Positions 1,432-58,466 are shown, counted from the first letter of the stretch. The stretch is DNA of 64,000 bases from a bacterium (GCA_046160485.1 JBJXGV010000070.1:13154-77153); one strand, 5' to 3'. The notes: a model not told the origin generated them from the letters alone. Translations and numbers: made by a program.

Positions 1432-1448
1432 GAATTCCTCCTCGCGGC

Positions 1449-2045: not shown

Positions 2046-2049
2046 CGCT

Positions 2050-2688
2050 CTACGTCCTCGCCTCGGGCGCGCGCACGCTGCGCGGCAGCGCCGCCGCGAT
2101 CCAATGCCACGCCGTCTTGTTCGTCAGGAAATCGACCTCCTCCGCGGGAACGTGCACGACGTGCGTCTCGCGAGCGACGCGCTCAATCCACGTGTCGTAC
2201 GCGTCACCGAGCCGCGCGAGGTAGTCGCGATCGATCCGCTTCTCGTAATCGCGTCCGCGCGAACGCACACGCTCGAGCAGGAACTCCGGAGAGGCGCGCA
2301 GGTAGACGATCATGTCCGGCCGCTTCAAGTGACTCGTCAGAATCGCGTAGAGCCGCTGATACATCTGGTGGTCGACGTCGCTTAAGAGCCCCTGCGCGTG
2401 GAGCGCCGTCGCGAAGATCTCGCCGTCTTCGTAAATCGTCCGGTCGACGATGTAAAAACGCTCCTCGCGGCCGAGTTGTTCGAGCGCCTCGTAGCGCCGC
2501 GTGAGGAAGTAGATCTGCGAGTGAAACGCCCAGGCCTTCGGGTCGGCGTAGTACTTCTCCAAATACGGGTTCTCGATCGTCGGCTCCAGATAAGCGCGCC
2601 AACGGAGATTCTCCTCGAGGATCCGCGTGAGAGTCGACTTGCCCGCGCCGATGTTGCCCGCGATGCCGAGGAAGAAGCCGGAAGCCAT
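2050..2688 (-). CDS. Deoxynucleoside kinase (dAK/dGK/dCK family)
   Basis: Start placed at internal Met (MASGFFLGIAGNIGAGKSTL P-loop); conserved E-P and DRTIYED motifs. The listed 261-aa ORF carries an Arg-rich shadow extension. Confidence 0.8.
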   Translation of the reverse strand: MASGFFLGIAGNIGAGKSTLTRILEENLRWRAYLEPTIENPYLEKYYADPKAWAFHSQIYFLTRRYEALEQLGREERFYIVDRTIYEDGEIFATALHAQGLLSDVDHQMYQRLYAILTSHLKRPDMIVYLRASPEFLLERVRSRGRDYEKRIDRDYLARLGDAYDTWIERVARETHVVHVPAEEVDFLTNKTAWHWIAAALPRSVRAPEART

Positions 2689-2696
2689 CGGCCGCC

Positions 2697-3149
2697 TCAG
2701 CCCGGGCTCTTGAATCGGAAGCTGTCTGGGAGCAGTACGTCGAGTGTTTGCACGTCCACACGGCCCGCAAGATCGGACATGATCACGCGCAGCGCGCCGC
2801 CGAACTCGGAGAGCGCCTGGCGGCAGAGCCCGCACGGCCGGACGGGGCCGTCCGTGTCCGCGACGATCGCGATGGCGTCGAACTCGAGTTCGCCCGCTGT
2901 CACCGCCGCGAAGAGCGCCGCGCGCTCGGCGCAGACTGTCACGCCGTACGATGCGTTCTCGACGTTGACGCCGCGATACACACTGCCGGATCGCGCCAGA
3001 AGCGCCGCGCCGACAGGGAATCGTGAGTATGGCGCGTAGGCGTTCGCCCGAGCCGCCGCCGCCGCCGAGACGAGCGCGTTGTCATCCAACGGAGGCGCTC
3101 GCGTCGATCGGCTGAAAGCACGCGCGGCAGCGCGGCTCGTAGATCGCAC
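2697..3149 (-). CDS. cdd: Cytidine deaminase
   Basis: [11 protein letters not shown] and PCGLCRQ zinc-binding motifs. Maximal ORF overlaps tdk; the true start is probably a non-ATG codon near 3090. Confidence 0.75.
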
Positions 3150-3663
3150 CGCCGCCGATGACGACGCGCTCGTGCGATTCGATGAGGCGCTGCGATTTCG
3201 TCGCGGGGCGCCCGCACACGACGCATATCGCCGTCACCTTCGTGATCGAGTCGGCGATCGCGAGGAGCTGCGGAATCGGTTCGAAGGGCTTGCCGAGGTA
3301 ATCCTGGTCCAGTCCGGCGACGATGACGCGCACGCCGCGCGCGGCGAGCGCTTCGCAAACCTGCACGAGCGGCCCCGCGAGAAACTGCGCCTCGTCGATT
3401 CCGACGACGCGCGTGTCGGCGTCGACGAGATCGAGAAGTTCGTCAGCCCGCGAAACGGCGACGGACTCGACGGAGCGCGCATCGTGCGAGACGATCGTGT
3501 CCTTGGAGTAGCGCGTGTCGATCGCCGGCTTGAACGCCTGCACTTTTTGCCGCGCGATCGCGGCGCGGCGAAGGCGCCGGATCAGTTCCTCGCTCTTCCC
3601 GCTGAACATGCATCCGCAGATCACCTCGATCTGCCCGGACGACGAATCGATTCCTTCGATCAT
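3082..3663 (-). CDS. tdk: Thymidine kinase
   Basis: [17 protein letters not shown]-loop, VIGIDEAQF, and C-terminal CxxC...CxxC zinc ribbon (CVVCGRPA...PRCRAC). Confidence 0.85.
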
Positions 3664-7436: not shown

Positions 7437-8696
7437 CTACGCCCGCTCCCCATCGCCGGCGCCGTCGCACCGAGATCCACGCAGCGCCGCCCCTTCGCCG
7501 CGCCCGCGCGGTGCCGCCGCGATCCCCTTCGTCTGCGCAAGAGACGCCGCGATGGCCGAGTGCGCGCGCCGTTTGACCGCGATCATCTCGGCGACGATCG
7601 ATACGGCGATCTCTTCGGGCGTCACGGCGCCAATATCGAGCCCGATCGGTGCGTGAAGCGCCAAGAGCCGCGCTTCGGGAATACCGCGCGCGAGCAACTG
7701 CGCCGCGGCGCGCTCGTGCTTTCTGCGGCTGCCGATTACGCCGAGGTAGCGAGTCGGCGGCAAGCGCAAGAGTCCCTCGAGCACCTGCTCGTCGTACTGG
7801 TGGCCGCGCGTTGCAAGAACGACGAAGTCGTGCGGCGCGAAGTCGACGCGCTCCGAAAGCTCCGCATAACCGGGAAGGACGATGCGGCGCGCGCCCGGAA
7901 AACGCTCGGCGGCGACGTACTTCTCGCGGTCGTCGACGACTGTGACTTGAAATCCCGCAGCGGTCGCGGCGGCGTGCACCGCGCGCGATACGTGCCCGGC
8001 GCCGATCAAGACAACGCGCGGGCGACCCACGACCGGTTCGAGATAGATCGCGCCGCCCGCCGCCCATGCAGAGCGTTCGTCGCGCACGGCGCTCATGGCA
8101 GTCGAGTGCAGCGCTTGCGGAAGCACCGCCAGACCGAGCAGGGGTTCGCCCTCTTCGCCGAGAACGATCCGCGCGGGAGCAGACGCGCCGCTCGCGCGAT
8201 CGCGCGGTGCCGCCGGTTCCGCGCGTGTTCCGATGAGCGGCGGCCCGCCATCGGAGAAAATTCGCGCGAGCACGCTCGTCGTTCCCAACTCGGTGCGGCG
8301 CTCGAGCAACTCACAAAGCGCGATGTCGCCCAATTCGAGCCGTTCCAGGAGAATCTCGACGGTTCCTCCGCAAACCATCCGCAATTCTTCTTCGGTTTCG
8401 GTCAATGTGAACACAACGCGCGCCCACCCTCCGGCCGCGCGCAGCTTCTGCGCCTCGCGCTGCACCTCCGCTTCGAGACAGCCGCCGCCAACGGTACCAA
8501 TCGCTTCGCCCGTATCGGAGACGAAGAGGCGCGACAGCACGGGCGCGGGCGTCGAGCCATGCACCGACGCGATCGTCGCCATCACGCCGCCGCCACACCG
8601 CGCCAATTGTTGCGCGCATTCACCAAAATGATTTCGAGAAGACACCGCGTCGCACTCCTCTCTGACGAGATCTGGTATCATGATATCACTTCGCAC
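7437..8696 (-). CDS. XdhC/CoxI-family accessory protein
   Basis: N-terminal VMATIASVHGSTPAP...TVGGGCLEAEV and central Rossmann-like VVLIGAGHVSRAV motifs typical of XdhC. Start may be 8681 or 8696. Confidence 0.65.
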   Translation of the reverse strand: MRSDIMIPDLVREECDAVSSRNHFGECAQQLARCGGGVMATIASVHGSTPAPVLSRLFVSDTGEAIGTVGGGCLEAEVQREAQKLRAAGGWARVVFTLTETEEELRMVCGGTVEILLERLELGDIALCELLERRTELGTTSVLARIFSDGGPPLIGTRAEPAAPRDRASGASAPARIVLGEEGEPLLGLAVLPQALHSTAMSAVRDERSAWAAGGAIYLEPVVGRPRVVLIGAGHVSRAVHAAATAAGFQVTVVDDREKYVAAERFPGARRIVLPGYAELSERVDFAPHDFVVLATRGHQYDEQVLEGLLRLPPTRYLGVIGSRRKHERAAAQLLARGIPEARLLALHAPIGLDIGAVTPEEIAVSIVAEMIAVKRRAHSAIAASLAQTKGIAAAPRGRGEGAALRGSRCDGAGDGERA

Positions 8697-8745
8697 AGTG
8701 CGAAGATCGACCCCCGTCGAACGCCATCAACCTCGGAGTCACAAG

Positions 8746-10995
8746 ATGAGCTGCACGCGCACCGCTTGCTTTGCATCCGCTCTCGTCTTCGCCGTACTGC
8801 TTGCGCCGTCCACCCCGAGCGCGCAGGTCGTCCTCAACGAAATCCTACCGAACCCCGCCGGCGACGACGTCGGCACAGAACGCATCGAAATCGTGAATGC
8901 TGGGCCGACATCCGTCGACGTGACGGGATGGGCCATCGATGACGCCGCGACGATCGATGAAGTGGGCGTGCGCTGCCGGATCCCTGAAGACTTCGACACC
9001 TCGGTCTGCTCGGGAAGTGCCATCCTCGCGCCGGGAGAGTTTCGCGTCGTGAAGGGAACATCCACGGCCGCGTTTCTCAACAACAGCGGTGACGACGTCT
9101 ACCTCATCAAAGATCGCACGCTCGCGCCGGTCGTCGCCGACCTCGTTACGTATCCGAGCGCGGCTCTGCAAGTCGACATGACGTGGGGCGCGATTCCGAA
9201 CGGGTCCGAGAACTTCGCGTGGCGAACGAAGACGCTCTGCGGGTCGAACGGCGGAGCGGGCGACTTCATCGCGCCCTCGACGATCGCGGATCTCGCCGCG
9301 GTGTCGGGTGCGTACTCCGGCGAAGTGCGCCTCACGTGGACCGCGCCCGGCGACGACGGCATGACCGGCACCGCGAGCGCATACGAATTCAAGGTTGCCC
9401 TCTCGTCGATCAACGCGGGGAATTTCGACACCGCGACCGATCTCGAATTTTGGATCAACGCGCCGCTGCCGCAGGCCGCGGGCACCGCGGAAACGCTTGT
9501 TGTCTTCGGGCTCGATCCCGCGTTCACGTGGCACTTCGCGGTGAAGGCGGTCGATGACGCGGCGAACCTCGGCGCCGTCTCGAACAGCCCGAGCGCGCTG
9601 CCGCTTGCAGGCGCGCTCCCCGATCCGAATCTTGGCGGCAACGTCTACTTCGGAAATCTGCATGCGCACACCGGATACTCGGACGGGCAGCTCACGCCCG
9701 CCGACGCCTACAGCTTCGCGCGGAACACGGCGCCGACGCCGCTCGACTTCCTCGCGGTAACCGATCACAACCACGCCGGCGCGGGAATGTCGCTGCCGAA
9801 CTATTCGCTCGGGCTCGCGCAAGCTGCCGCGGCGAACGATGACGGCAACTTCGTCGCGATCTACGGGCAGGAGTGGGGATTCGCTTCGAACGGACACGTC
9901 AATATTCTGGAAGCGCCCGTGCTCTTCGGCTGGGAGGCCGGCAACTACGACGTATTCGTCGCGGAAGGCGACTACCCGAGCCTCTACACCGCCGCGCTCG
10001 CGAACCCGCCCGCTTCCTATCCGGTGGTTCTGCTCTGGTGTCATCCTGCGGCGAGCGACTTCGACAACCTCGCCGTCACGAGCGATGGATTGGCGGCGGT
10101 TCATCTCATGTGTCTTGTGAACGGTCCCGCGTTCTCGACCGCGACCGACGAAACCGACGTCGGCAACACGGGCTTCGACGATGTTTTCCACGAAGCGCTC
10201 CGCAAGGGATACCGCGTTTCGCCGACCGCCGACCAAGATAATCACAACGTTACGTGGGGTGCGTCGTCGCAGAGTCGTACCGCGGCGCACGCGAGCACCA
10301 AATCGAAGGCCGCGATTCTCGGCGCGCTCGCGGCCGGCAACAACTACGCGACTCAGGATCACAACGCGCGTGTCGACTTCACCGCGGACGGGCACGGAAT
10401 GGGCGAGGCGTTCACGGCGACGAGCGGCGTGCGAATCGCGGTGCGCGTGACGGACCCGGATGTCGGCGAGACGGTGTCGCTCATCGAACTCTTCCGCGGT
10501 ATCCAAGGTGTTTCATCCGCGGTCCGCGTCGCGTGGAACGCCGACAACAACGAGCTGCATTGGCGCGAGCTCGAAGAGTTCGCCGACGGGACCGAGGTGC
10601 ACTACACGCTGCGGATCCGTCAGGGCGACAATCACAGCATTTGGACCGGACCCGCGTACATCACCTATCAATCCGCGACGGGCGTTGCGGACGGAGCGAG
10701 CGCTCCGGCGTCGGCCATTCGCCTCGCTTCCCCCACGCCGAATCCGACGCGCGGCGCAACGCGCATGGCGTTCGCCTTGCCGCGCGACGTCGCCCGCGTG
10801 CGCGCGACGTTGTTCGACGTCGAGGGACGGTTGACGCGTGTCCTTCTCGACCGGCCGCTCGGCGCGGGCAATCACGAGGTCAGGTGGGACGGCGGCCTCG
10901 CGTCGGGCCGCCAGGCGCCGCCGGGCATCTACCTGCTCCGGCTCGATGCGGGCGACGAAGGATCCGCCACCGCGAAGATTCACCTGCTTCGCTAA
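8746..10995 (+). CDS. Secreted multidomain protein: signal peptide, lamin-tail domain, Fn3-like domain, PHP phosphoesterase domain, C-terminal FlgD-like/sorting-type beta-sandwich tail
   Basis: Start at internal Met (MSCTRTACFASALVFAVLLAPSTPSAQ signal). LTD motif VVLNEILPNPAGDD...ERIEIVN...VDVTGWAIDD; PHP motif YFGNLHAHTGYSDGQ...VTDHNH; C-terminal tail PPGIYLLRL. Confidence 0.75.
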   Translation: MSCTRTACFASALVFAVLLAPSTPSAQVVLNEILPNPAGDDVGTERIEIVNAGPTSVDVTGWAIDDAATIDEVGVRCRIPEDFDTSVCSGSAILAPGEFRVVKGTSTAAFLNNSGDDVYLIKDRTLAPVVADLVTYPSAALQVDMTWGAIPNGSENFAWRTKTLCGSNGGAGDFIAPSTIADLAAVSGAYSGEVRLTWTAPGDDGMTGTASAYEFKVALSSINAGNFDTATDLEFWINAPLPQAAGTAETLVVFGLDPAFTWHFAVKAVDDAANLGAVSNSPSALPLAGALPDPNLGGNVYFGNLHAHTGYSDGQLTPADAYSFARNTAPTPLDFLAVTDHNHAGAGMSLPNYSLGLAQAAAANDDGNFVAIYGQEWGFASNGHVNILEAPVLFGWEAGNYDVFVAEGDYPSLYTAALANPPASYPVVLLWCHPAASDFDNLAVTSDGLAAVHLMCLVNGPAFSTATDETDVGNTGFDDVFHEALRKGYRVSPTADQDNHNVTWGASSQSRTAAHASTKSKAAILGALAAGNNYATQDHNARVDFTADGHGMGEAFTATSGVRIAVRVTDPDVGETVSLIELFRGIQGVSSAVRVAWNADNNELHWRELEEFADGTEVHYTLRIRQGDNHSIWTGPAYITYQSATGVADGASAPASAIRLASPTPNPTRGATRMAFALPRDVARVRATLFDVEGRLTRVLLDRPLGAGNHEVRWDGGLASGRQAPPGIYLLRLDAGDEGSATAKIHLLR

Positions 10996-11004
10996 CGTAT
11001 CGCG

Positions 11005-12519
11005 TTGCCGCCGCTCGACACCATCACGCGCGAGCCGAAGGCGTCCGATCTCGACGCGGGCGCCGCGGGGCTCGTCCAGCGGATGCACGCCGTGATCGAG
11101 CAGCTTCACGTCGCGCGCGCGGAGCTCTCGCCCGATGCCGTGCACGACCTCCGCGTTGCGCTTCGCCGATGCCGATCGATCGCCGAAGGCGCCGGGGCGA
11201 TCGACTCGCATCGAAGCTGGCGGCGCCTTCGCCGTGCGAGCCGGTCGCTCTTCCGGCAGCTCGGCGCGCTGCGCGACGCTCACGTGATGGCGGAGTGGAT
11301 CGAGAAGCTTGCGCCCGCCGGCGATACCGCGCGCGAACGCCTCTCCGCGCAGATTCACGCACGCGAAGCCCAGCTCGCTCGGTCGGCGCGCGACGCCGTG
11401 TTCGAGTTCGACGACGCCGCGTGGCGCGCGCTCGCCGCGGTGGTCGCCGCGCGCGCGGAGAGGCTGCGCCCTGGCAGCGCCGTCTTCCGCCACCTTGCGC
11501 TCGAGCGCTGGACCGAGGCGCGTGCGCTTCACGATGCCGCCCTCGAAAGCGGCAGCGGTGAGGCGTTCCACGCGCTGCGCATCGGCGTGAAGCGATTTCG
11601 CTACACCGTCGAAAACTTTCTTCCTCGGAAATACGAGGTGTGGGCGAAGCAGTTCAAGCGCGTTCAGGACTCCCTCGGCGAGATGCACGACCTCGACCTG
11701 CTCTGGGGCGCCATCGCCGCCGCCGAGCCGCCGCTTTCCGACGAGGAGCTGGCCGAGTGGCGCGACGTGCTCAGCAACGAACTCGAATCGCGTCTCTCCG
11801 ACTACCACGAACGCATGAGTGGCGATGATTCTCTCTGGGCGGAGTGGCGGGACGGGCTGCCGGACGAAGGCGCGCTTCCCGCCGTTTCGTTCGCGCGCGT
11901 TGCGGCCTGGGCCGCGCTCCGCGACCCGGCTCCGCGCCACGCGCGCCGTGTCGCGAGGCTCGCCGTGGAAATCTTCGACGGCCTCGGCGCGCTCGAGCGA
12001 GCACATCCGTTCGGCGATCGACGATCCCGGCGGTCTCTGCGCGGGGCGGCGCTCGCGCATCACATCGGACGCGCGGGCGGCCGCAGCCGCCGCCACAAGC
12101 GCACCTATCGATTGCTCACCGAACTGCGCGCACCGCTCGGTTGGGAAGAAGATGAGATTCGCGCGGTGGCGATCATCGCGCGCTACTATCGCGGGTCAGA
12201 GCCGCATGCGTCCCATGCGGGCTTTCGCGATCTCGACGCCGCGGGCCGCACGGCGGTCTCCGCACTCGCGGGCGTCCTGCGCATCGCAGACGCGCTCGAC
12301 AGCCGGCACGACGGCGCGGTCGCGCATGTGCGCGTCGAGTCGGCGCCCCCCGCGATTCTCGTTCGAGCGTTCGGATACGAAGAGGACCAACGCACCGCGG
12401 CTCGCATGGGCGGCAGAAAGCGACTTCTCGAGTCCGTTCTCGGCCGTCCGATCGTGGTCTTGGGCGCGCAGCGCGACGAGTCGCCTGCCATTCGCGCCGG
12501 AGCGCGCCCTCCGCGCTAA
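11005..12519 (+). CDS. CHAD domain protein fused to a Ppx/GppA C-terminal (HD-like) domain
   Basis: CHAD signatures (VHDLRVALRRCRS; FHALRIGVKRFRY). C-terminal 200 aa align block by block with the C-terminal domain of the neighbouring Ppx (HARRVARLAVEIFDGL vs HAEHVRSLALSLFDQL; AIIARYYRGSEP vs ACLVRYHYKAEP). Confidence 0.75.
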   Translation: MPPLDTITREPKASDLDAGAAGLVQRMHAVIEQLHVARAELSPDAVHDLRVALRRCRSIAEGAGAIDSHRSWRRLRRASRSLFRQLGALRDAHVMAEWIEKLAPAGDTARERLSAQIHAREAQLARSARDAVFEFDDAAWRALAAVVAARAERLRPGSAVFRHLALERWTEARALHDAALESGSGEAFHALRIGVKRFRYTVENFLPRKYEVWAKQFKRVQDSLGEMHDLDLLWGAIAAAEPPLSDEELAEWRDVLSNELESRLSDYHERMSGDDSLWAEWRDGLPDEGALPAVSFARVAAWAALRDPAPRHARRVARLAVEIFDGLGALERAHPFGDRRSRRSLRGAALAHHIGRAGGRSRRHKRTYRLLTELRAPLGWEEDEIRAVAIIARYYRGSEPHASHAGFRDLDAAGRTAVSALAGVLRIADALDSRHDGAVAHVRVESAPPAILVRAFGYEEDQRTAARMGGRKRLLESVLGRPIVVLGAQRDESPAIRAGARPPR

Positions 12520-13013
12520 CGCGCCAACGCGCGCAGCATCTTTCCGGTAAGCAGCCAACCGATCGTCGCCTGCGGCGGGACGGCGGATTTCATTTCGAGG
12601 CACGCGATGCCGGCTTTCTTCAACGCGGTCGCCGCGCCCTTGGCACCCAGCGCGAGGGAGATCATCTCGTCGAGGTGCGTGGCATGGCCGAAACACGCGA
12701 CATCCTTGCCGTTGAGCTTCGCGATCTCCTGAAAGATCGCGCGCGGATTCGCGCACGGCTTGAGCGCCGCGGTCTTGCGAAGTGCCGACTTCGAAACGTC
12801 GAAGGCTGCGGCGAAAAGCTCGGCCGTCTCGAGCGCGCGCGTGTAGGGACTCGTAAGAAAGACCTCGGGCGCCGCGCCGAGCGCGCGGAAGCCGCGCGCT
12901 GCGGCTTGCGTTTTGAGGATTCCGTCCGCCGTCAACGCACGCGCCGGATCGGCGGGCGAAGCGGGGTCGTTCCGATCGATCGCGATTCCATGCCGCACGA
13001 CGTAGAGCCTCAT
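12516..13013 (-). CDS. sixA: Histidine phosphatase family protein (SixA-like phosphohistidine phosphatase)
   Basis: MRLYVVRHGIA N-terminal RHG motif, about 165 aa, conserved late His (CFGHATH). Confidence 0.7.
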   Translation of the reverse strand: MRLYVVRHGIAIDRNDPASPADPARALTADGILKTQAAARGFRALGAAPEVFLTSPYTRALETAELFAAAFDVSKSALRKTAALKPCANPRAIFQEIAKLNGKDVACFGHATHLDEMISLALGAKGAATALKKAGIACLEMKSAVPPQATIGWLLTGKMLRALAR

Positions 13014-13037
13014 GATTTCTGAAAATCCCCCTCGAGC

Positions 13038-14579
13038 CTAGTGGGCCGCCGCCGACTCGACGCGCACGACCACGCCGAATTCTTCTTCGAAGAGGCTCGC
13101 ACGCCGCGCAGCCTCATCGATCGATCGCCTTTCGGCTTTCGCCGGCGTCACGCGAATGACCACTTCGCCGCGAACGAACGCGACGTCGACCCGGCGAACG
13201 GCGCGACCCATGTCGACGTCGAGCGCGGACGCGAGGCGAAGAATCGCGGTGAGCCCGCGCACCTGATGTTGCCGCTCCGTATCGAGCCCTCCGTACACCT
13301 TGTGATCGGGCACCGGTTCCGCTTTGTAGTGATAGCGCACAAGACACGCGAGCATGTCGCGCCGCCATCCGTTGATGCCATCGATCTCGCCGTGGCGCAC
13401 GAGATATTCGCCGTGTTTGTGATGATCGCGATGGTTGACGAAGTGCCCCGCGTCGTGAAGAAGCGCGCCGAGCGACAAAACGACGCGCTCGTCGCGGCCC
13501 ATTCCGTGCAGCGGGCGGAGCTGATCGAAAAGCGAAAGCGCGAGCGATCGCACGTGCTCGGCGTGTTTCATGTCGCAGTGAAGCCGCCGCCCGAAGGCGC
13601 GCGCCTTCTCGAGAAGCAACCGCGAACGCGCGTCGTCCGGCCCGATCGCCGGCAGCGCGAAGTGGCCGCTTACGAGGTCGTCGAGCACGCCTTCGCGAAC
13701 GCCGACGCCGGGCACGAGCAACTCGCGCAGCGAGAGCATCCGCCCGAGAGTCGTGAATATGATCGCGGCGATTCCCATCACCTCGGCGCGGTCGCGGCGC
13801 ACATCGAAGAGCCGCATCCGTCCGCGAACGTCGTTCGAGAGAATCTGCGGGAGGCGGTTCGTCAGCACGCGAAGGCTCAGCGACGGGATGCCGTGCGGCC
13901 GCCGGCCCGGCGCGATCTGCGCGAGCGCTTCCGCGTTTCCGCCGCAGGCCACGACGACGGCGCGCGACAGGTCGCCTGCGCGAGAAAGATTGCGTCCGAT
14001 CTTCGCGACGATGCGGCGCTCGAGCGCGGCTCGCATCGCCGCGTCGATTTTGCCGGACACGTCGAACGTTTCCATAAGGCGCACGGTCCCGACCGGAAGC
14101 GTGACGCTCCGCTCGACGTCGCCGCCGCGCATCAGGTTCAGCTCCAAGCTCCCGCCGCCGAGATCCACGATCAATCGCGGCGCAAGATCTTCCCCCAGGC
14201 TCGCGCGCACGGCCGCGCGCACCAGGCGTGCTTCGTCATTGCCGCCGATGACCGTAAGCCGGATGCCCGACTCGCGCTGAATCCGGCGTAGGAGCGCGGC
14301 GCGATTCTTCGCCTCGCGCGTCGCCGAGGTCGCCACCGCGCGGTACTTCGTGACGTGATACCGGTTCATGAGCGCGCGGAAGTGGCAAAACGCCTTCGCT
14401 GCCGCGGCGATCGTCGCGCGGTCGAACGCACCATCCGTGAAGACGTTGTGCCCGAGCCGAACGGGGACGCGCTCCGTCTCGAGCACGCGGACGCGAAGCG
14501 GCGACTCGGCGCGGGCGATCAACAAGCGAATCGCGTTCGATCCGGCGTCGATCGTCGCGAACTGAACCGGTGCGTTCAC
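13038..14579 (-). CDS. ppx: Exopolyphosphatase / guanosine pentaphosphate phosphohydrolase (Ppx/GppA)
   Basis: GTG start at 14577-14579 (VNAPVQFATIDAGSNAIRLLIA); IVDLGGGSLEL actin-like fold motif; C-terminal LLHDAGHFVNHRDHHKH HD-like domain. The listed 747-aa ORF has a long shadow N-terminus. Confidence 0.8.
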   Translation of the reverse strand: MNAPVQFATIDAGSNAIRLLIARAESPLRVRVLETERVPVRLGHNVFTDGAFDRATIAAAAKAFCHFRALMNRYHVTKYRAVATSATREAKNRAALLRRIQRESGIRLTVIGGNDEARLVRAAVRASLGEDLAPRLIVDLGGGSLELNLMRGGDVERSVTLPVGTVRLMETFDVSGKIDAAMRAALERRIVAKIGRNLSRAGDLSRAVVVACGGNAEALAQIAPGRRPHGIPSLSLRVLTNRLPQILSNDVRGRMRLFDVRRDRAEVMGIAAIIFTTLGRMLSLRELLVPGVGVREGVLDDLVSGHFALPAIGPDDARSRLLLEKARAFGRRLHCDMKHAEHVRSLALSLFDQLRPLHGMGRDERVVLSLGALLHDAGHFVNHRDHHKHGEYLVRHGEIDGINGWRRDMLACLVRYHYKAEPVPDHKVYGGLDTERQHQVRGLTAILRLASALDVDMGRAVRRVDVAFVRGEVVIRVTPAKAERRSIDEAARRASLFEEEFGVVVRVESAAAH

Positions 14580-14581
14580 CC

Positions 14582-15349
14582 CTAGCGCCAAAGAGGAGCG
14601 AGCGCGGCCGAAGGCTGGTAGCGTGTTCTGCGAATGCCGAGGTGCTGCGCGATGCGGCGGCGAAGCCCGTTGTTGATCGCGCGAATCCCCAGCTCGCCGT
14701 CCATCTCCTCGAACTTGTGGCGCCGCGAGAGCGACTGGAACTGCGTGCGGACCAACTGCTGGTAACGGATAAACGAGCGATACAGATCGTTCGAGAGCGA
14801 CATATCGCGCCCCGCTTCCCAATAGCTGATGACGCTCGACTTCTTGAACTCGCGTTCGAACGCGGCTTGCGGGCCGACCTTGAGCCAGAACGTCAGGTCG
14901 GGGCGAAGCGCCATCGCGTAGAGGCCGTGCAGGTATTCGCGCGAAAGCCCGCGCACCGCGCTCCGCGCGATCAGCGAGTAGATGTAGCGGTCGGCGAGCA
15001 CGACCATTCCCGATCGAAGGGCCGGAATGATGCGGTGCTCGAGCTGATCGAAGAAGTCGGTGGCGTACATGAGCGCGAGCGTCAGGCGCGTGACGGCGTT
15101 TTCCGCGAGAAGGTTGTCGATGTCGCGCGCCACGAGATTCGAGCGCCGCAGTCCCATCGTCTGGACTGGAAACCCCTCGGACTCGAGCCACTCTTTCAGA
15201 AGCGCGATCTGGGTCGACCGCCCGGAGCCGTCCGTCCCTTCGATGACGATCAGAGAGCCCGACAGCTCTTCGGGTGCGCACCCGGGAAGCACGGTTCCGT
15301 AGAAGCGTGTCGCCTCGACCGACGCCGCCTTTCGCTTTCGCGTCGTCAT
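14582..15349 (-). CDS. Thymidylate kinase-like P-loop kinase (paralog 1)
   Basis: Start at internal Met (MTTRKRK); LIVIEGTDGSGRSTQ P-loop and VLADRYIYS (DRY) motif. Confidence 0.7.
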   Translation of the reverse strand: MTTRKRKAASVEATRFYGTVLPGCAPEELSGSLIVIEGTDGSGRSTQIALLKEWLESEGFPVQTMGLRRSNLVARDIDNLLAENAVTRLTLALMYATDFFDQLEHRIIPALRSGMVVLADRYIYSLIARSAVRGLSREYLHGLYAMALRPDLTFWLKVGPQAAFEREFKKSSVISYWEAGRDMSLSNDLYRSFIRYQQLVRTQFQSLSRRHKFEEMDGELGIRAINNGLRRRIAQHLGIRRTRYQPSAALAPLWR

Positions 15350-16077
15350 CGGCGCGGACCGAACCGGCTCAGATCGATTCGCGTTGCGACCTTCGCCCGC
15401 ATATCTTCTTGCAGTTTGTTCACGGGCAACGTGCCGTCCATCAGCACGAAATTGTCGGTTGCGATCATCTGCTCGTACTCGTCCATGATCATTCCCTGGA
15501 AGCGGCGGAAACTTTCGCCGGGATCGAACGACAATCCCAAGTCCATCCCCGCCTCGTAGTGTTTGAGTTTCGGGCGCCCGCCGAGGATGCGATTGACCGC
15601 GACGTCGAGCGGCGCGCGGAAATAGAACGTGATATCGGGAATCGGCGCGAAGCCGTAGAGATTGCGAAGCCACGCCGTCGAGCAGCCGCGAGCCGAGTCG
15701 CGCGCGAACGCCGTGTAGATGTAGCGGTCCGCGAGCACGAGGTAGCCGCTCTGCAACAGCGGGAGAATCTGCCGCTCGCACCGGTCCGCGAAATCGGCGG
15801 AGTGCAGAAGCGAGAACGTGACGGGCGTCAGGAGCCGGCGGCGTTTTCCGCGCCGCGTCGCCGCCTTGACGAGCAGCGACGAATTCCACTCGGTGAAGTG
15901 AATCCGGTACCCCGAGATCTCGAGCCAGCGCTTCAGAAGATAAAGCTGCGTGCTCTTCCCGGAGCCGTCGATTCCTTCGACGACGATGAGCGCGCCAGGA
16001 TAGTCGCGGCCGCCCGTGTTCCGCGCACTGGCGCGGAGCGCCGCCGCGCGCGGCTCTTTTGCGAGGACGCGTGTCAT
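15346..16077 (-). CDS. Thymidylate kinase-like P-loop kinase (paralog 2)
   Basis: LIVVEGIDGSGKSTQ P-loop and LVLADRYIYT motif; 4-nt overlap with paralog 1. Confidence 0.7.
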   Translation of the reverse strand: MTRVLAKEPRAAALRASARNTGGRDYPGALIVVEGIDGSGKSTQLYLLKRWLEISGYRIHFTEWNSSLLVKAATRRGKRRRLLTPVTFSLLHSADFADRCERQILPLLQSGYLVLADRYIYTAFARDSARGCSTAWLRNLYGFAPIPDITFYFRAPLDVAVNRILGGRPKLKHYEAGMDLGLSFDPGESFRRFQGMIMDEYEQMIATDNFVLMDGTLPVNKLQEDMRAKVATRIDLSRFGPRR

Positions 16078-16213
16078 GACGGTGAGATTACACGCTGCAC
16101 AGCGAACGAGGGAAGCGATGAACGCGCCCCGAGTGTGACAATTCCGTGGTGGTGCGTGGCACCACGAGTGTGCAGAGGAATCGCGACGCGAGCGGCCATG
16201 GAGGCGAGCGCGG

Positions 16214-17419
16214 CTAAAGGCCGACGCGCGCGCGCTTGGCGAGAACGGATTCGGAAAGACACGGGCAATCTTGCAGGACCGAAAGCGTCACGGTCCTCCC
16301 GGAAGCAATCGTCGCAACGACCGTCACGGGCGCGCCGCTCCCGAGCTCGCGCGCCAGCTCCACGTCGCCTGTGGCCGTCGGCCGGAACGTCAGCGTCGCA
16401 ACGCCGCCGGAGAATCGCCCCTCGTCGATCGGGATCGGGCCATAGCGGATGTCGTCGTTCTCGAGTGTCACGCTGCCGTCGAGGATCGAACCTTCCTGCT
16501 CCGTGGCGATTCTCAGATCGTAGCTCTCGCCGGCGATCGTCGCGGGAATCGTGATCTCGAATTCGTCGTAGACACGCGCGGCCGTCCAGGACGTTCCGCC
16601 GGTGAAGCAGGTATCGATCACTCCGGCAACGTTCGTCTCCTGCCAGATGAAGAAGCGCACGACGCTCCCCTGATCGAGACGACCCGCGTAGCGAATCGGC
16701 GCGGCGCAACCGAGCGACTCCGCGAGCGCGCCCGTCGGATCGTCGGCGGGATCGACGATGAAGAAGATGGTGCTCGTGTCGGAGACGCCGCCTGTGACCA
16801 GCGGGAGCGTCGGCCCGATCGTCCCGCCCTGCGCGTTCCCGTACGTGATCTGAATGTTCCCGGTAAGCGACGCACCGTCTTGGATGAGGGAGAGCTCGCC
16901 GAGCATTCGCGAGCGCCCGAGCGGGCGGTCGAGCGGGCCCCGCGCGGTGAAGACCGGCGTTTCCAACGCCGCCGCGCCCGAGGCGACGAGGCACTGCTCG
17001 CTCGCGCAGTTCTGCGACACGCTCAAGAGCATCGTTTCGCGGTTCACGAGCGCGCCGTCGAATCGAACGGGCGCCGCGTTGCCGAACGCGTCGATCACCG
17101 CGACGATCGGCGGCGAGAACGGATCGATCGTGAACGAGAACCCAGCATCCGAGAGCGAACCCTGCGCGAGCGCGTACTCGCCGACCGGTTCGCGATTCTC
17201 GAGGACGATCAGTCGGCCGCCGATCGAGGTGTCGCGTTCCTCGAGCTCGAGGATCGCCTCCGTGCCATCGAGGTCCGTGATTTCCCAGCGGCCGGTGATG
17301 GAGTTCGAGGACTGCAGCGGGTCGCCGCTCTCGCCGCAGCCGAAGAGAAGCATGGCGACCGAAAGGACGAGAGGCGCGCGGATCGATCGCGCATTCGATG
17401 AGGACGCTCGCCAGATCAC
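16214..17419 (-). CDS. Hypothetical lipoprotein
   Basis: N-terminal signal with lipobox (LVLSVAMLLFGCGES); Thr/Gly/Ser-rich non-shadow composition; no recognised catalytic motif. Confidence 0.5.
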   Translation of the reverse strand: MIWRASSSNARSIRAPLVLSVAMLLFGCGESGDPLQSSNSITGRWEITDLDGTEAILELEERDTSIGGRLIVLENREPVGEYALAQGSLSDAGFSFTIDPFSPPIVAVIDAFGNAAPVRFDGALVNRETMLLSVSQNCASEQCLVASGAAALETPVFTARGPLDRPLGRSRMLGELSLIQDGASLTGNIQITYGNAQGGTIGPTLPLVTGGVSDTSTIFFIVDPADDPTGALAESLGCAAPIRYAGRLDQGSVVRFFIWQETNVAGVIDTCFTGGTSWTAARVYDEFEITIPATIAGESYDLRIATEQEGSILDGSVTLENDDIRYGPIPIDEGRFSGGVATLTFRPTATGDVELARELGSGAPVTVVATIASGRTVTLSVLQDCPCLSESVLAKRARVGL

Positions 17420-17481
17420 GGCGGCAGTCTACAAGGCGGGCGCGCCGCCCGCAATAACGAAGGTGCGCGCGCCGGGCCGAA

Positions 17482-19023
17482 CTAACCCGGAAGCTTCACG
17501 TCGATCATGAGGAGGCTCCCCTTTGCAACGAGCGAGAACGCGAATTGGAGCGCGAGAATCGCGATGAGGCCGCGCGTGCCGCCGGGCACGCCGCCGCGCG
17601 TCGCGGCGATCACCACGGGCGCAACGAGAAAGAGCCACACGCGCGAAGTCTCCGCGGGGATGAGTCCCGAGAGGTCGAGCACCGCGAGGAACGCGAGCAC
17701 CGCGAGCGTGAAAGGCGCCTCGATGCGGCGTGCGCGAAGGTCGCGAACGGCCGCGAACACCTCGCGCGCGAAAAGCACCGCCACGGCGGGCCCGAGGAAA
17801 ATGAAGAAGTCGGGGAGATTCCAGAAGACCCACGTGAGCCACTCGCGCCGCTGCTCCGGAATCAGAACCTCGTGCTGGATCTTGTAGGCGGCAAGGAAGA
17901 CGCGCGGAATCGAGCAGCCCGTCGCGAGCTGGAACAGCGCGAGGACCGAGGCGAATCCAGCGCCGAGGGCGAGCAGACGCCGCAGGCGCCAGCGCGGCGG
18001 CGGCCGCGTCCCCGCGTCGTCCGCCCGAGCAAATCGCGTGATCGTAATATCCACAATGCCAACAAGTAACAGAAAGAAGCTCGCCACGAACGTAAAGAGG
18101 CAGAGCACCCCGCACAGCGCGCCGGCGGCCACGAGCGACCGGAGTCCGCGCCCGCGGCCGACAAGGAGGAACGCAGCGAGGATCAGAAGCGGATACGCGG
18201 CATCGAACTCCCCGGCGAAGAGGAGGTGCGACGGGATCACGGCTAGGAGGAGCACGGCGGCGCGAGCAGCCGGCGCGCCGCTCAGTCGACGCGCGAAGAA
18301 GAACGCGGGAATCAGCGCCAGGCGCGAGCAGATGACGACGGCGAGCCCAACGATGATCAGGCTCGCGAGCTCGGCCGGAGCCGCGCCCGGAAGATCGCCC
18401 TCGGAGATCCCGAACGCGCGCGCCACGCCGAGCACGCCATCGGTCGCGCCCGCCGACCCGCGGAAGAACTCGAGAATCTGGTGATTGACCGCAACGAGTC
18501 CCGGCGGATGCGTGCGCGCGTGATGCGGCAGTCCCGCCACGATTTCGTGGAACGACGTCAGCATCTCGGGCAGCGACGTGACGGAGCGCGCGGTCCAGAA
18601 GTAGCCGGTCACCCATGGCACGACGTGAATGAGCGGCAGCGTCACGGGCCCGAGCGGCGAGAGTCCGAGAAACGACAGCTCGAGCGCGATCGCGATCAGA
18701 ACGACGAGTGCGAGCATCGCCGCGTCGCCGCGAGGGCGCGAGTCGCGCCGGCGAGTCCACGTCGCGGCCGCCCCCGCGAGCAGGGCGAAGAGGAGTGTCG
18801 TCCCGAGCGCACGCGGCCAAAGCGACGTCGCGACGTACGGCCATCGCCAAGAAGGCGGGCCGACGATCCACGGGAACCGGACCAGAAGAAGAATCGCAAT
18901 CGCCACGGTCGCGGCCGCGGCAGCGATCAGAACGCGCCGGTCGCCGCGAGCGCCGTCGTGCGTCGCGTTCGCGCCATCCTCGCTCACGGTGCGTCCCCGA
19001 TCATGCCGTTGCGCGAAATCCAA
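17482..19023 (-). CDS. Polytopic integral membrane protein, unknown function
   Basis: More than 10 hydrophobic segments (LIAAAAATVAIAILLLV, FTFVASFFLLLVGIV etc.). Start uncertain: the listed start overlaps the upstream SGNH gene by 40 nt. Confidence 0.5.
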   Translation of the reverse strand: MDFAQRHDRGRTVSEDGANATHDGARGDRRVLIAAAAATVAIAILLLVRFPWIVGPPSWRWPYVATSLWPRALGTTLLFALLAGAAATWTRRRDSRPRGDAAMLALVVLIAIALELSFLGLSPLGPVTLPLIHVVPWVTGYFWTARSVTSLPEMLTSFHEIVAGLPHHARTHPPGLVAVNHQILEFFRGSAGATDGVLGVARAFGISEGDLPGAAPAELASLIIVGLAVVICSRLALIPAFFFARRLSGAPAARAAVLLLAVIPSHLLFAGEFDAAYPLLILAAFLLVGRGRGLRSLVAAGALCGVLCLFTFVASFFLLLVGIVDITITRFARADDAGTRPPPRWRLRRLLALGAGFASVLALFQLATGCSIPRVFLAAYKIQHEVLIPEQRREWLTWVFWNLPDFFIFLGPAVAVLFAREVFAAVRDLRARRIEAPFTLAVLAFLAVLDLSGLIPAETSRVWLFLVAPVVIAATRGGVPGGTRGLIAILALQFAFSLVAKGSLLMIDVKLPG

Positions 19024-22180: not shown

Positions 22181-23329
22181 CTAGCGAACGCGGCGGCGGC
22201 GGTTCTCGACGAAGTCCATGAGGATGTATTCGCCGAGCTTGTTGAGCGAGGAGAAGTACGCGCGGCCGCGATTGAGCTCGGTGAGTTGCGTGACGAAATC
22301 CTGGAAGTGCGCGTCGCGCGTCACCATGAACGTCGTGATCGGAATCCGCTTGCGCCGGCAGACGACGGCTTCGTCGAGCGTGCGATTGATGATCTTCGGA
22401 TCGAGGCCGAACGTGTTGCGGTAGATCGTGCCGTCGCTCTCGCGAATCACGGTCGGCTTGCCGTCGGTGATGAGAAAGATCTGCCGGTTCGCCGCCTTCC
22501 GCCGTTCGAGAATCTTGCGCGCCATTTGCAGCGCGGCCTTCGTATTCGTGTGGTACGGCCCGACCTCGAGGTACGGGATGTCGCCGATGGCGATCTCGAA
22601 CGCGTCGTCGCCGAACGCGATCACGTCGAGCGTGTCCTTCGGGTACTTCGTCAGAATCAGTTCCGTCAGCGCAAGCGCGACACGTTTCGCCGGCGTGATC
22701 CGGTCCTCGCCGTAGAGAACCATGCTGTGCGAGATGTCGATGAGGAGCGCGGTCGCGCACGACGACGAGTGTTCGGTCTCGAAGACCTCGAGGTCTTCCT
22801 CCTTCAATCCGCCGCCGAGTAGTCCCGTGCCTTCGAGGCCCGTCAAACTCACCTGCGTTTCGTCGGCGCCGGTCGCGCTCGCGCGCCGAAACGAATTCAG
22901 GAGCGACCCCCTAAAGTCGATGTTGTTGACCTCGTCGCCGAAGCGCCACGGCCGCCGCTCCGAGAGCATCTCGCGGCCATCGCCTTCGCGCGGAACGCGG
23001 TGGTCCCCCGACTCGCCTTTGCGCAGCGCCGAAAACACGTACGAAAGCGCGCTCTTGCGAATGCCGCGCTCCCCTTTTCGCGTCAGCCGCGCGCCGTCGT
23101 CGGAGACCTCGATGTACTCCTCTTCCTCGAGACGCTTTGCAAACTTTTCGACGTCGAAGCCATCGGGGAGATAGCCCTGCTTCGCGAGATAACGCAGCAT
23201 CTCGAGCGCCTCGTCGACATCGCCGTCGCTTTGCAGCAGCAGATGATTGAACAGATCGAGGACGTTCTGGAATTCGGCGAGATCGCGCAGAAGCGCTTCG
23301 TCGAACCGGAAGTAGCGAAAGCGCGACAC
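22181..23329 (-). CDS. VWA domain protein (partner of the ChlI-like ATPase)
   Basis: MIDAS motif LLIDISHSM (DxSxS) followed by a typical von Willebrand A fold region ending FLITDGKPT; about 170-aa N-terminal domain of unknown function. Confidence 0.75.
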   Translation of the reverse strand: MSRFRYFRFDEALLRDLAEFQNVLDLFNHLLLQSDGDVDEALEMLRYLAKQGYLPDGFDVEKFAKRLEEEEYIEVSDDGARLTRKGERGIRKSALSYVFSALRKGESGDHRVPREGDGREMLSERRPWRFGDEVNNIDFRGSLLNSFRRASATGADETQVSLTGLEGTGLLGGGLKEEDLEVFETEHSSSCATALLIDISHSMVLYGEDRITPAKRVALALTELILTKYPKDTLDVIAFGDDAFEIAIGDIPYLEVGPYHTNTKAALQMARKILERRKAANRQIFLITDGKPTVIRESDGTIYRNTFGLDPKIINRTLDEAVVCRRKRIPITTFMVTRDAHFQDFVTQLTELNRGRAYFSSLNKLGEYILMDFVENRRRRVR

Positions 23330-23338
23330 GAGAGCCGG

Positions 23339-24811
23339 CTAGCCCTTCATGTTCTTGAACATGTTCGCGAGCATGTCGCTGTAGCGGACGCGTTGATCGA
23401 GCGCTTCCTTCGCGACGAGCGAGTTCTGGTGCAACCCGTCGAGAACGAACTCCATGACCGTCGCCATTTCTTCTTCGTCCGCGGGCCGCATTTGCTTCTT
23501 CGCGATCGCCTTGAGGCCCGGCACCTTCGACAGCTCCGCGTAGTAGTCCGCAAACGGCATCTCGTCGCTGATCTCGATCCGGCCGCCGCCCGCGAAGTGA
23601 TCGGAGATTTCCTTGTACGGCCCGGGCCCCTTCCCCGGCTCCTCTTTTCCGTCCTTCGACTTGTAGACCGCCGGAAAATGCCGCTGGAAGACCTTGTTGA
23701 TCGCCTTGCCGATGAGCGTGAGCGAAACGATCGTCGGTCCCTCCTGCTCGCCTTCGTAGACCAGCTCGATCTTTCCGGTGATCGCGGGGAGCGCGGAGTA
23801 GAGATCGCACATGCGCGGCGTCCAGCGTTCCTCGCCGGTCAGCAAGACGCGCCGCTCGATGTTCGAGAGCAGGTTCTCGTATGCGGAGATCGGAAGCCGC
23901 GCCGAAACGCCGCTCGATTGATCGACGAACTCGCTCTTCCGCGCCTCGAACGCGATCTCCTCGACGATCTCTTGGATGAAACGCGGCATGCGAAACGGCT
24001 GGCCGCGATCGACCCACGCCTCTTGAGCGGTGATCGCGATCGCGTCGTCGACCGTCTGCGGGTAGTGCGTGATGATCTGCGAGTCGATGCGGTCTTTGAG
24101 CGGCGTGATGATGTTCCCGCGATTCGTGTAGTCCTCGGGATTCGCCGTGAAGACGAGCAACAGATCGAGCGGCAGCCGAATCGGAAATCCGCGAATCTGC
24201 AGATCCTTCTCCTCGAGGATGTTGAGGAGCCCGACCTGAATGCGCGGCTGAAGATCCGGCAGCTCGTTGAGCGCGAAAATCCCGCGATTCGTGCGCGGCA
24301 CGATGCCGTAGTGGATGACGCCTTCGTCGGAGAGGTCGAGCCTCTCGCGCGCGGCCTTGATCGGGTCGATGTCGCCGATCAGGTCCGCCATCGTCACGTC
24401 GGGCGTCGCGAGCTTCTCCTGATACCGCTCCTCGCGCGTGATCCATCGAATCTCGATCTGCTCGCCGAGTTCGGAGGCGAGCCGCCGGCAACGCGAACAG
24501 ACGGGATGAAGCGGATCGTCGTTGAGCGCGCAACCCTCGATCGCGGGAACGCGCTCGTCGAGAAGCGACGTCAGCGCGCGAATGATGCGCGTTTTCGCCT
24601 GACCGCGAAGGCCGAGGAGGATCAGGTCGTGTTTCGCGAGCAGCGCGTTTTCGATTTGAGGAATCACGGTCCGGTCGTAGCCGACGATTCCGGGGAAGAC
24701 CGGCTCCTTGGCGCGGATCTTCCGCGCGAGGTTGCGCCGGATCTCATCCTTTACGGAGAGCGCGGCATAACCGGTCTTCTTCAGTTCTCTAAGCGTCTTC
24801 GGGTGAGGCAT
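23339..24811 (-). CDS. Mg-chelatase ChlI-like AAA+ ATPase
   Basis: FPGIVGYDRTVIPQIENALLAKHDLILLGLRGQAKT Walker A-region variant typical of ChlI/BchI-like ATPases; GIFALNELPDL Walker B-like. 10 nt upstream of the VWA gene. Confidence 0.75.
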   Translation of the reverse strand: MPHPKTLRELKKTGYAALSVKDEIRRNLARKIRAKEPVFPGIVGYDRTVIPQIENALLAKHDLILLGLRGQAKTRIIRALTSLLDERVPAIEGCALNDDPLHPVCSRCRRLASELGEQIEIRWITREERYQEKLATPDVTMADLIGDIDPIKAARERLDLSDEGVIHYGIVPRTNRGIFALNELPDLQPRIQVGLLNILEEKDLQIRGFPIRLPLDLLLVFTANPEDYTNRGNIITPLKDRIDSQIITHYPQTVDDAIAITAQEAWVDRGQPFRMPRFIQEIVEEIAFEARKSEFVDQSSGVSARLPISAYENLLSNIERRVLLTGEERWTPRMCDLYSALPAITGKIELVYEGEQEGPTIVSLTLIGKAINKVFQRHFPAVYKSKDGKEEPGKGPGPYKEISDHFAGGGRIEISDEMPFADYYAELSKVPGLKAIAKKQMRPADEEEMATVMEFVLDGLHQNSLVAKEALDQRVRYSDMLANMFKNMKG

Positions 24812-24945
24812 TCACGACTCCAAGGGGGCGAGGACGATGTTCTGTTCGGCGATTTTGTCGGCGAATGATAGCAGCGCAAGGGAAGCCGGGCAAACAGGGC
24901 GCGCACGGGAGCGCGACGACGCGCGATCCGGCGATGCTCGCGCTG

Positions 24946-24975
24946 TTGACGCGGCGGCGCGACGCTGTCTACTCT
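24946..24975 (+). promoter_or_regulatory. Candidate sigma70-like promoter for PolX (TTGACG-N18-TACTCT); implies a leaderless or near-leaderless transcript
   Basis: -35-like TTGACG at 24946-24951 and -10-like TACTCT at 24970-24975, 9 nt upstream of the ATG at 24984. Hexamer matching by eye in GC-rich DNA is weak evidence. Confidence 0.3.
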
Positions 24976-24983
24976 GTCGCTCG

Positions 24984-46049: not shown

Positions 46050-46120
46050 TGGCTGGCTCCCTAATGGCTTACGATTTCGGGCGGGCGGCGCGGGCGCGCC
46101 GTCCGCCGAGGTATCTCGGC

Positions 46121-46154
46121 AAAAAAAACACCCTGCGCAAGATAGCACAGGGTG
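46121..46154 (-). terminator. Rho-independent terminator (7-bp GC-rich stem, 12-nt loop, T8 tail) on the minus strand
   Basis: Minus-strand read: CACCCTG-tgctatcttgcg-CAGGGTG-TTTTTTTT. Lies 30 nt downstream of the small zinc-ribbon ORF stop; the only clean intrinsic terminator seen in the window. Confidence 0.6.
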
Positions 46155-58441: not shown

Positions 58442-58466
58442 CGCGCGCGCGCCACGACGGCCGGCG

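Follow-up and report, generated by a model that had tools for sequence, protein, structure and literature searches.

In this study we analyzed a 64,000-nucleotide stretch of DNA from a bacterium (GCA_046160485.1 JBJXGV010000070.1:13154-77153; hereafter the window, meaning the whole stretch) and found at positions 11005-16077 a cluster of five genes that we interpret, with a probability of roughly 0.8, as a bacterial operon of a family-3 polyphosphate kinase (PPK3). Two of these genes encode tandem proteins of the thymidylate kinase (Tmk) family. From its sequence, the upstream one (c) looks like the catalytic member of the pair, and the downstream one (r) has the profile of a regulatory subunit. 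The remaining three encode an exopolyphosphatase (Ppx), a SixA-like histidine phosphatase and a protein in which a CHAD domain is fused to domain III of Ppx. Judging by family content and residues, the cluster is of an operon type already published (2024/2026) and not a new system. The original prediction had described five adjacent genes of polyphosphate (polyP) and phosphotransfer families, which are present at the coordinates it gave, and every family it named was verified by Pfam and NCBIfam profile searches. Its functional guess, that the Tmk-like pair acts on polyP, was right; its claim that no classical polyP operon includes such a pair no longer holds, as the pair now figures in a published one (PMC12995831). 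The five genes are the following:

11005-12519, plus strand: fusion of a CHAD domain with a Ppx domain III/HD-like region (504 aa; Pfam)
12516-13013, minus strand: SixA-like histidine phosphatase (165 aa; Pfam, RHG motif)
13038-14579, minus strand: exopolyphosphatase Ppx (513 aa; Pfam, NCBIfam, PDB match)
14582-15349, minus strand: rPPK3-like gene, predicted regulatory or scaffolding subunit (255 aa; PF02223)
15346-16077, minus strand: cPPK3-like gene, predicted catalytic subunit (243 aa; PF02223)

The reference for this reading is the archaeon Sulfolobus acidocaldarius, where saci_2019 and saci_2020, annotated as thymidylate kinases, encode a heteromeric PPK3, SaPPK3 (Höfmann et al., J Biol Chem 2026, PMC12995831; bioRxiv 10.1101/2024.08.28.610084). 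Saci_2019 is the catalytic subunit (cPPK3); Saci_2020 (rPPK3) shows no activity by itself but raises that of cPPK3 roughly ten-fold when the two are joined in an alpha2-beta2 complex. The enzyme works in both directions, with a strong preference for ADP + polyP -> ATP (PMC12995831). Neither protein has dTMP kinase activity, which is present in a third paralogue, Saci_0893 (PMC12995831). The genes belong to an operon sixA-ppx-cPPK3-rPPK3-CHAD (saci_2017-2021), STK_15430 of Sulfurisphaera tokodaii is a cPPK3 homologue, and bacterial PPK3 operons with PPX, SixA and CHAD neighbors were predicted by the authors (Fig. 5, Fig. S19; PMC12995831). The window belongs with these predicted bacterial operons, its nearest relatives being metagenome-assembled genomes (MAGs) of Acidobacteriota (Ca. 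Acidoferrum/Acidiferrales). With the SaPPK3 operon it shares the five gene families, the position of c immediately before r, the loss of the dTMP site in both subunits, a c protein with a lysine P-loop, DRY motif and basic cleft, and an r protein with a Walker A arginine (as in the Sulfolobaceae representative, a Metallosphaera locus designated L001). It differs in gene order, which is c-r-ppx-sixA with a convergent CHAD gene instead of the collinear sixA-ppx-c-r-CHAD. In addition, domain III is present in the window Ppx, and that of Metallosphaera (420 aa) shows a match to the N-terminal Ppx-GppA domain only; the CHAD protein of the window contains domain III once more, as a fusion partner; and the window r has retained the arginine of the DRX motif and has basic tails at its N-terminus (about 25 aa) and C-terminus (about 20 aa). 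The host differs as well, being a mesophile-type high-GC (66%) bacterium. The function proposed for the window pair rests on homology, and the reaction, the heteromer with its stoichiometry and the direction of flux are inferred from archaeal SaPPK3. The name PPK3 has other uses in the literature, which appear to denote an unrelated PPK2-type biocatalysis enzyme.

Both Tmk-like proteins match the Thymidylate_kin family PF02223 (c, 2.7e-19; r, 1.2e-20), in agreement with the original prediction. Within that family they stand far closer to STK_15430 than to any canonical Tmk. Among all PDB sequences, the best match of c is STK_15430 (2plr/5h70; 213 bits, E 3e-62), to which it is orthologous, the 209 aligned residues (28-236) being about 50% identical with essentially no gaps; the best canonical Tmk reaches 55 bits only. 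The r protein matches STK_15430 with 129 bits (E 2.4e-36, about 35% identity), against 52 bits for the best canonical Tmk, and is 36% identical to the window c. STK_15430 (PDB 2plr, 4nzy, 4rzx, 5h70) is therefore the closest solved structure to both proteins. It has in common with c the P-loop, the DRY motif, the H/F replacements in the former dTMP pocket and the basic stretch, and differs in being a single archaeal subunit crystallized without its partner. In a neighbor-joining (NJ) tree the 82 c sequences are monophyletic, and the 159 c and r sequences together exclude the canonical Tmks. As this tree has two canonical outgroups only and no support values, it is weak support alone, and the bit-score gap between STK_15430 and canonical Tmks is the stronger evidence. 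The window c and r share an NJ subclade (about 18 members), as would be expected if they were inherited together.

Conservation was analyzed by a scan of one genome per GTDB species, with patterns taken from the alignment of STK_15430 and window c. One of the patterns, EGIDGSGK, may also occur in canonical Tmks; the 528 stretches confirmed by tblastn are not used as a family size, and the conservation counts refer to the best 80 of them, all with E <= 5e-58. These 80 loci comprise one from Sulfolobaceae (L001), 17 from Nitrososphaerales and other Thermoproteota, and 62 from bacteria. About 34 of the bacterial loci are labeled Acidobacteriota, and the labels span roughly ten phyla; the others include Planctomycetota, Thermodesulfobacteriota and other "delta" groups, Gastranaerophilales, Dormiibacterota, Bacteroidota, Binatia, Hydrogenedentota, Chloroflexia, proteobacteria and unclassified MAGs. 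A protein library search gave at least 331 clusters at 50% identity (E <= 1e-30). By these sequence matches the PPK3-type family looks much wider in bacteria than the published 'few bacterial homologues ... members of the Acidobacteriota' (bioRxiv 10.1101/2024.08.28.610084).

The arrangement of the genes is conserved along with their sequences. A second Tmk-like gene adjoins c in 76 of the 80 loci and, except in L068, follows it immediately on the same strand; in L068 an r-like gene is found upstream of c with ppx between them. Within 8 kb of the pair, tblastn detected Ppx in 59/80 loci, SixA in 38/80 and CHAD in at least about 18/80, the last figure being a lower bound. The exact order of the window, c-r-ppx-sixA with convergent CHAD, occurs in about a dozen loci (among them L024, L025, L028, L032, L036, L037, L044, L047, L050, L051, L061 and L063), whose c and r proteins are 72-79% and about 70% identical to those of the window. 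This order occurs in a clade of about 18 mostly Acidobacteriota MAGs to which window c and r belong, and two metagenome contigs with independent gene calls and precomputed Pfam annotation have the same order and 4-nt overlaps. The 14 genes flanking the module were all without a homologue in the 80 loci, so that the conserved unit is exactly the five genes. An order that recurs in at least a dozen independent genomes without common flanking genes is not due to chance. The Metallosphaera locus, with His_Phos_1, Ppx-GppA, c, r and a weak CHAD match, represents the archaeal operon and is a sequence bridge to the window. Furthermore, natural fusions with a cPPK3-like domain were found (P0241, P0248, P0254, P0266, P0301, P0315, P0329, P0350 and P0363). 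They include c-r fusions of 460 aa, of which P0241 is one example; proteins of 650-700 aa with two Tmk domains and Ppx domain III/HD; proteins of 771-1237 aa with MFS, Tmk-like and DUF2252/APH parts; and an inorganic pyrophosphatase (InPase) joined to a Tmk-like domain (1610 aa). At the level of sequence, the c-r and c-r-Ppx domain III fusions support a physical coupling of the parts.

The two subunits can be told apart by a few motifs, which lie in the window as follows:

15949-15975, minus strand: Walker A (P-loop) of the c-subunit, GIDGSGKST, with the canonical Lys41 (Lys in 81/81 c-type sequences)
15721-15729, minus strand: DRY (DRX) motif of the c-subunit, D117-R118-Y119 (D and R in 81/81 c-type sequences)
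15212-15238, minus strand: variant Walker A of the r-subunit, GTDGSGRST, with Arg44 for the invariant Lys (Arg in 73/77 r-type sequences)
14984-14992, minus strand: retained DRY motif of the r-subunit, D120-R121-Y122 (DRX Arg in 76/77 r-type sequences)

The c-type sequences follow the Walker A pattern G.DG[SA]GK[ST][ST] throughout, and their DRX motif reads DRY in 80 and DRF in one. They also have a set of basic residues of their own: at least 11 positions carry a basic residue in 70% or more of the c-subunits but in fewer than 50% of the r-subunits. Window c is basic at 10 of these 11 positions (K71, R75, R76, R79, R80, R99, R102, R168, K172 and R191), the exception being the position of M196, and window r is non-basic at all of them but K157. 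This restriction to c-subunits accords with the statement that the residues of the polyP cleft are conserved only in cPPK3 (PMC12995831). The proposal that the pair consists of polyP-linked kinases and not of housekeeping dTMP kinases is supported in that both proteins are closer to STK_15430, have lost the dTMP residues and have archaeal homologues that act as a polyP:ADP phosphotransferase. The picture of two kinases has to be modified, since only the upstream protein looks catalytic.

In r-subunits, the substitution of the Walker A lysine by arginine extends to Metallosphaera and to all Nitrososphaerales, and the four of 77 sequences that retain the lysine all come from Gastranaerophilales-type loci. 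The published account names a different change: the DRX arginine is replaced in rPPK3s, and this was offered as the cause of the inactivity of the archaeal r-subunit (PMC12995831). Window r does not have this replacement, and among the 77 r-type sequences the arginine is lost solely in the Metallosphaera representative (DGY). As the arginine is retained in 76/77, this loss is a feature of Sulfolobaceae, where it looks like a secondary change, and not of the family. On the alignment, the family-wide mark of the r-subunit is the Walker A Lys->Arg substitution, which the main text of PMC12995831 does not mention. As a feature of its own, the r protein of the window clade has a basic N-terminal tail (residues 1-30) with a conserved RFYG..LPG and a conserved C-terminal tail (residues 235-255) with HLGIR.T.Y.PS.ALA.LWR, and both tails are missing from the 210-aa Metallosphaera r-subunit.

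In the mechanism that we propose, c would hold ATP/ADP at the usual nucleotide site of Tmks (the P-loop), with polyP lying in a basic cleft where Tmks have the dTMP pocket, and would reversibly transfer the terminal phosphate, polyP(n) + ADP <-> polyP(n-1) + ATP. The r-subunit, with a Walker A Arg for Lys and without the polyP cleft, would be non-catalytic and, by analogy with Sulfolobus, may make up the core of an alpha2-beta2 complex in which c is activated. The ATGA coupling of the two genes, their common NJ subclade and the natural c-r fusions (P0241 and others) lend indirect support to such a heteromer. Ppx would hydrolyze polyP to Pi, the CHAD/domain III protein probably binds or tethers to the polymer or granule, and this protein and the SixA-like phosphatase would serve as accessory factors, as in other operons of this type. 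A comparable logic of inactive and active P-loop kinase modules is known from the two-domain class II PPK2 of P. aeruginosa (PA3455), which differs in belonging to PF03976 and not to the Tmk lineage, in having both domains fused in one chain and in using AMP/GMP as acceptor. Neither Tmk-like protein of the window has a PF03976 (PPK2) match in Pfam, and the only match to a PPK2-type model is that of the r-subunit to TIGR03708, with 15.5 bits, confined to the P-loop, against a cutoff of 547.65.

A variant of this scheme, possible although we regard it as doubtful, is a PPK3 in which the bacterial r-subunit, instead of being an inert scaffold, senses a bound ligand or provides a second, altered active site. 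Such an r would bind ATP/ADP or polyP through its arginine P-loop, DRY motif and LID arginines and would set the energy-charge threshold at which the enzyme switches between polyP synthesis and ATP regeneration. In favor of this variant, D40, R44, D120-R121, R129, R133 and R166 are kept in at least 97% of the 77 r sequences, the arginine at the Walker A position is itself conserved and does not look like random decay, and the DRX arginine was lost in the Sulfolobaceae representative only. The r proteins are also about 70% identical across many MAGs, with a mean r-r identity of 46% against 56% for c-c. However, P-loop kinases are normally severely impaired in phosphotransfer by a Walker A K->R change, and the basic cleft specific to c is missing from r-subunits. 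In addition, the sole r-subunit assayed, Saci_2020, was without kinase activity and gave trace ADP only (PMC12995831). More speculatively, a ligand-sensing pseudokinase r might gate c in bacteria and Nitrososphaerales, and PPK3, not PPK1 or PPK2, might be the main polyP kinase of many soil Acidobacteriota and several other phyla. If that were true, surveys based on ppk1/ppk2 markers would systematically miss polyP-cycling capacity.

It is unlikely that the pair is a polyP-dependent kinase with an acceptor other than that of SaPPK3, such as AMP, GDP or (d)NMPs, as in the broader idea of nucleotide kinases in the original prediction. PPK2 classes do vary in acceptor preference, and window c is only about 50% identical to STK_15430; SaPPK3 itself used GDP too, at a reduced rate (PMC12995831). 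However, window c shares the P-loop, the DRY motif and LID R163 with the archaeal c-subunit, the residues of the dTMP pocket are gone, and no pointer to a different acceptor was found in the sequence.

That the two genes are genuine thymidylate kinases, a duplicated housekeeping tmk as the databases have it, is very improbable. The name has some basis in profile scores: one of the two PF02223 proteins is just over the cutoff of TIGR00041 and the other just under it (84.4 and 78.3 bits against 83.25, both borderline), NCBI and JGI call all homologues dTMP kinase, and no other tmk lies within the window, where neither a third Tmk paralogue nor PPK1 or PPK2 was found among about 45 open reading frames compared with Pfam, and tblastn found no third Tmk-like gene. 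However, all five positions that contact dTMP in canonical enzymes are replaced or deleted:

E. coli Tmk F74: H in c, Y in r
E. coli Tmk R78: F in c, F in r
E. coli Tmk T105: A in c, L in r
E. coli Tmk Y108: gap in c, gap in r
E. coli Tmk Q109: R in c, R in r

The positions refer to what we take to be the E. coli Tmk sequence, with which the T. thermophilus PDB sequence agrees at four of the five, having Ser for T105. The replacements hold throughout the c and r groups (about 80 sequences each), so that the pocket residues of canonical thymidylate kinases (TIGR00041/EC 2.7.4.9) are replaced in both window proteins. With canonical dTMP kinases (E. coli Tmk, T. thermophilus Tmk 5x7j) the pair shares the fold family, the P-loop, the DRX motif and one LID arginine; it differs by an identity of only 24-32%, by the replaced contacts to thymine and deoxyribose and by being a predicted heteromeric set of paralogues inside a polyP gene cluster. 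Moreover, one copy has the Walker A K->R change, the pair sits between polyP genes in dozens of genomes, and the archaeal homologues are without dTMP kinase activity, which resides in a separate canonical paralogue (PMC12995831). By its residues the pair is not a housekeeping dTMP kinase.

Of the other three proteins, Ppx has an N-terminal Ppx-GppA domain (PF02541, 1.5e-43) followed by the HD-like domain III (PF21447, 4.4e-26), and it contains a DLGGGS motif. It scores 207 bits with the exopolyphosphatase model TIGR03706 against about 100 for the GppA model; in the PDB it is matched best by the exopolyphosphatase 8jgo (E 1.9e-34, aa 6-472). Since Ppx and GppA form one family and the GppA structure 6pc0 is among the PDB matches (2.7e-31), the module could be imagined as one of (p)ppGpp metabolism, with a pppGpp phosphohydrolase and kinases acting on guanine nucleotides, but this deserves hardly any credence, as exopolyphosphatase models and structures score higher, a CHAD protein, known as a polyP binder, is part of the module and the characterized homologous operon acts on polyP. 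The SixA-like protein matches PF00300 (His_Phos_1, 6e-8) and has the motifs RHG (aa 7-9) and GH (aa 108-109). It scores 57.3 bits with TIGR00249, whose cutoff is 74.5, and its PDB matches are 3f2i (1.3e-7) and, weakly, E. coli SixA 1ujb (8.5e-3). In the CHAD protein, PF05235 (3.6e-31) covers aa 37-235 and the Ppx-GppA_III/HD family PF21447 (1.9e-10) aa 311-442; in the PDB, the CHAD part has weak matches to 6qv7/3e0s, and the C-terminal part corresponds to 8jgo residues 359-482 (6e-13). All 120 of the 120 best database homologues have the same architecture; CHAD-domain III is thus a common fusion, predicted from sequence to be polyP-binding or granule-associated. In its HD motif the His is invariant, and the next residue is H in the window and D or N elsewhere, so a role of this domain III in binding or dimerization seems more likely than one in catalysis.

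Several points weigh against the reading of the cluster as a PPK3 operon. Literature searches gave the Sulfolobus study only, and no assayed bacterial PPK3 was found. STK_15430, on which much of the comparison relies, was deposited as a 'probable thymidylate kinase'. The DRX arginine kept in window r means that the bacterial r-subunit may not be inert. The presence of a canonical tmk elsewhere in the genome and the absence of PPK1 and PPK2 could be checked within the 64-kb window only. Finally, a scan of 10800-17600 recognized no sigma-70-like promoter, and its terminator-like matches were at the level expected from shuffled sequence; the operon structure is for this reason deduced from spacing alone.

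As regards this spacing, two elements of the presumed transcription unit are to be mentioned:

15346-15349, minus strand: ATGA stop/start overlap of the c and r genes, a signature of translational coupling (same 4-nt overlap in independent gene calls of two related contigs)
16078-16213, minus strand: intergenic region 5' of the c gene, presumed promoter region of the c-r-ppx-sixA transcription unit (136 nt)

Of the 4-nt overlaps originally claimed on both sides of r, the one with c is real, and the r-ppx junction has none: ppx starts either at GTG 14579, 2 nt past the TAG of r, or at TTG 14591, with a 10-nt overlap. The sixA gene starts 24 nt past the ppx stop and is preceded by a Shine-Dalgarno-like sequence, GAGGGGG, while the CHAD gene and sixA are convergent, with overlapping stop codons (CTAA). 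The GC content of the window is about 66%, and as a consequence most of the open reading frames listed for it are spurious.

NCBI and JGI name both subunits "dTMP kinase" (the exact r sequence of the window appears at NCBI as 'MAG: dTMP kinase [bacterium]'), and release 20 of NCBIfam has no PPK3 model. Because annotation pipelines still use that name for both, the capacity for polyP synthesis and ATP buffering is invisible in many environmental bacterial genomes, and reading the pair as a PPK3 corrects the annotation of this locus. To the published picture our analysis adds the wider bacterial range, the Walker A Lys->Arg mark of the r-subunit and the natural fusions; the basic understanding gained in the 2024/2026 work is unchanged by them. 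Moreover, a PPK3 from a mesophilic bacterium would be convenient for regenerating ATP from polyP.

Some loci depart from the common arrangement. Five Gastranaerophilales-type loci, L026 (6998-9313), L043, L057, L064 and L070, have two tandem PPK3-like genes, the second of which keeps the Walker A lysine in the first four; that of L070 has Arg, although the NJ tree places it among them. Within 8 kb of these pairs neither ppx nor sixA nor CHAD was found, the contigs of L043 and L070 being only about 3-4 kb long. In L026 a gene for a 277-aa HD-domain protein lies directly upstream of the pair, and an MFS transporter is near. Such pairs may consist of two active subunits or have another function. 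In L010 and L012, both from one Thermoproteota MAG, the order is sixA-ppx-c and no r gene is detectable downstream. The matches to r in L078 are fragmented and point to a frameshift or pseudogene. In L081, a DUF2252 gene (12267-13352) is located about 7 kb from the PPK3 module.

The host belongs to a poorly sampled lineage: an ETF-QO gene of the window (44358-46148, minus strand) encodes a protein at most 58% identical to any taxon-labeled match (Acidobacteriota, Terriglobia, Planctomycetes) and 74-85% identical to a handful of MAG proteins. Compared with Acidobacteriota, c and r are 70-79% identical, and Ppx, SixA and CHAD 36-54%, comparable to the housekeeping ETF-QO. Horizontal transfer of the module from Acidobacteriota was considered and set aside, as high conservation of c and r explains this pattern of identities equally well. 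Upstream of c, directly beyond the intergenic region, a gene at 16214-17419 (minus strand) encodes a 401-aa protein with a hydrophobic, lipoprotein-like N-terminal start and no Pfam or NCBIfam match; the closest related contig, P0006 (r 78% identical), has an unannotated 404-aa gene at the same position, and none of the 80 GTDB loci has one. On the other side, a 771-aa secreted protein (8680-10995, plus strand) ends 10 nt before the CHAD gene. It combines lamin-tail, PHP/CehA-McbA-type metallohydrolase and C-terminal FlgD-Ig-like domains and is not conserved beside PPK3 modules elsewhere.

Farther out, a nucleoside-salvage cluster (271-3663, minus strand) lies 7 kb from the module and encodes an adenosine deaminase (271-1431), RpiB (1449-2045), a deoxynucleoside kinase (2050-2835) and a thymidine kinase (3082-3663), without a canonical thymidylate kinase. 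A DHH/DHHA1 phosphoesterase (31247-32269, minus strand) and a NUDIX hydrolase (51397-51975, plus strand) belong to enzyme types that can act on phosphoanhydrides, but they are 15-35 kb away from the module. The window also encodes a pair of VWA and AAA_5 (MoxR-like) proteins (22181-24811, minus strand), a PolX-type DNA polymerase with a PHP domain (24837-26780, plus strand) and an FHA-GAF-SpoIIE (PP2C) phosphatase (58209-60083, plus strand).

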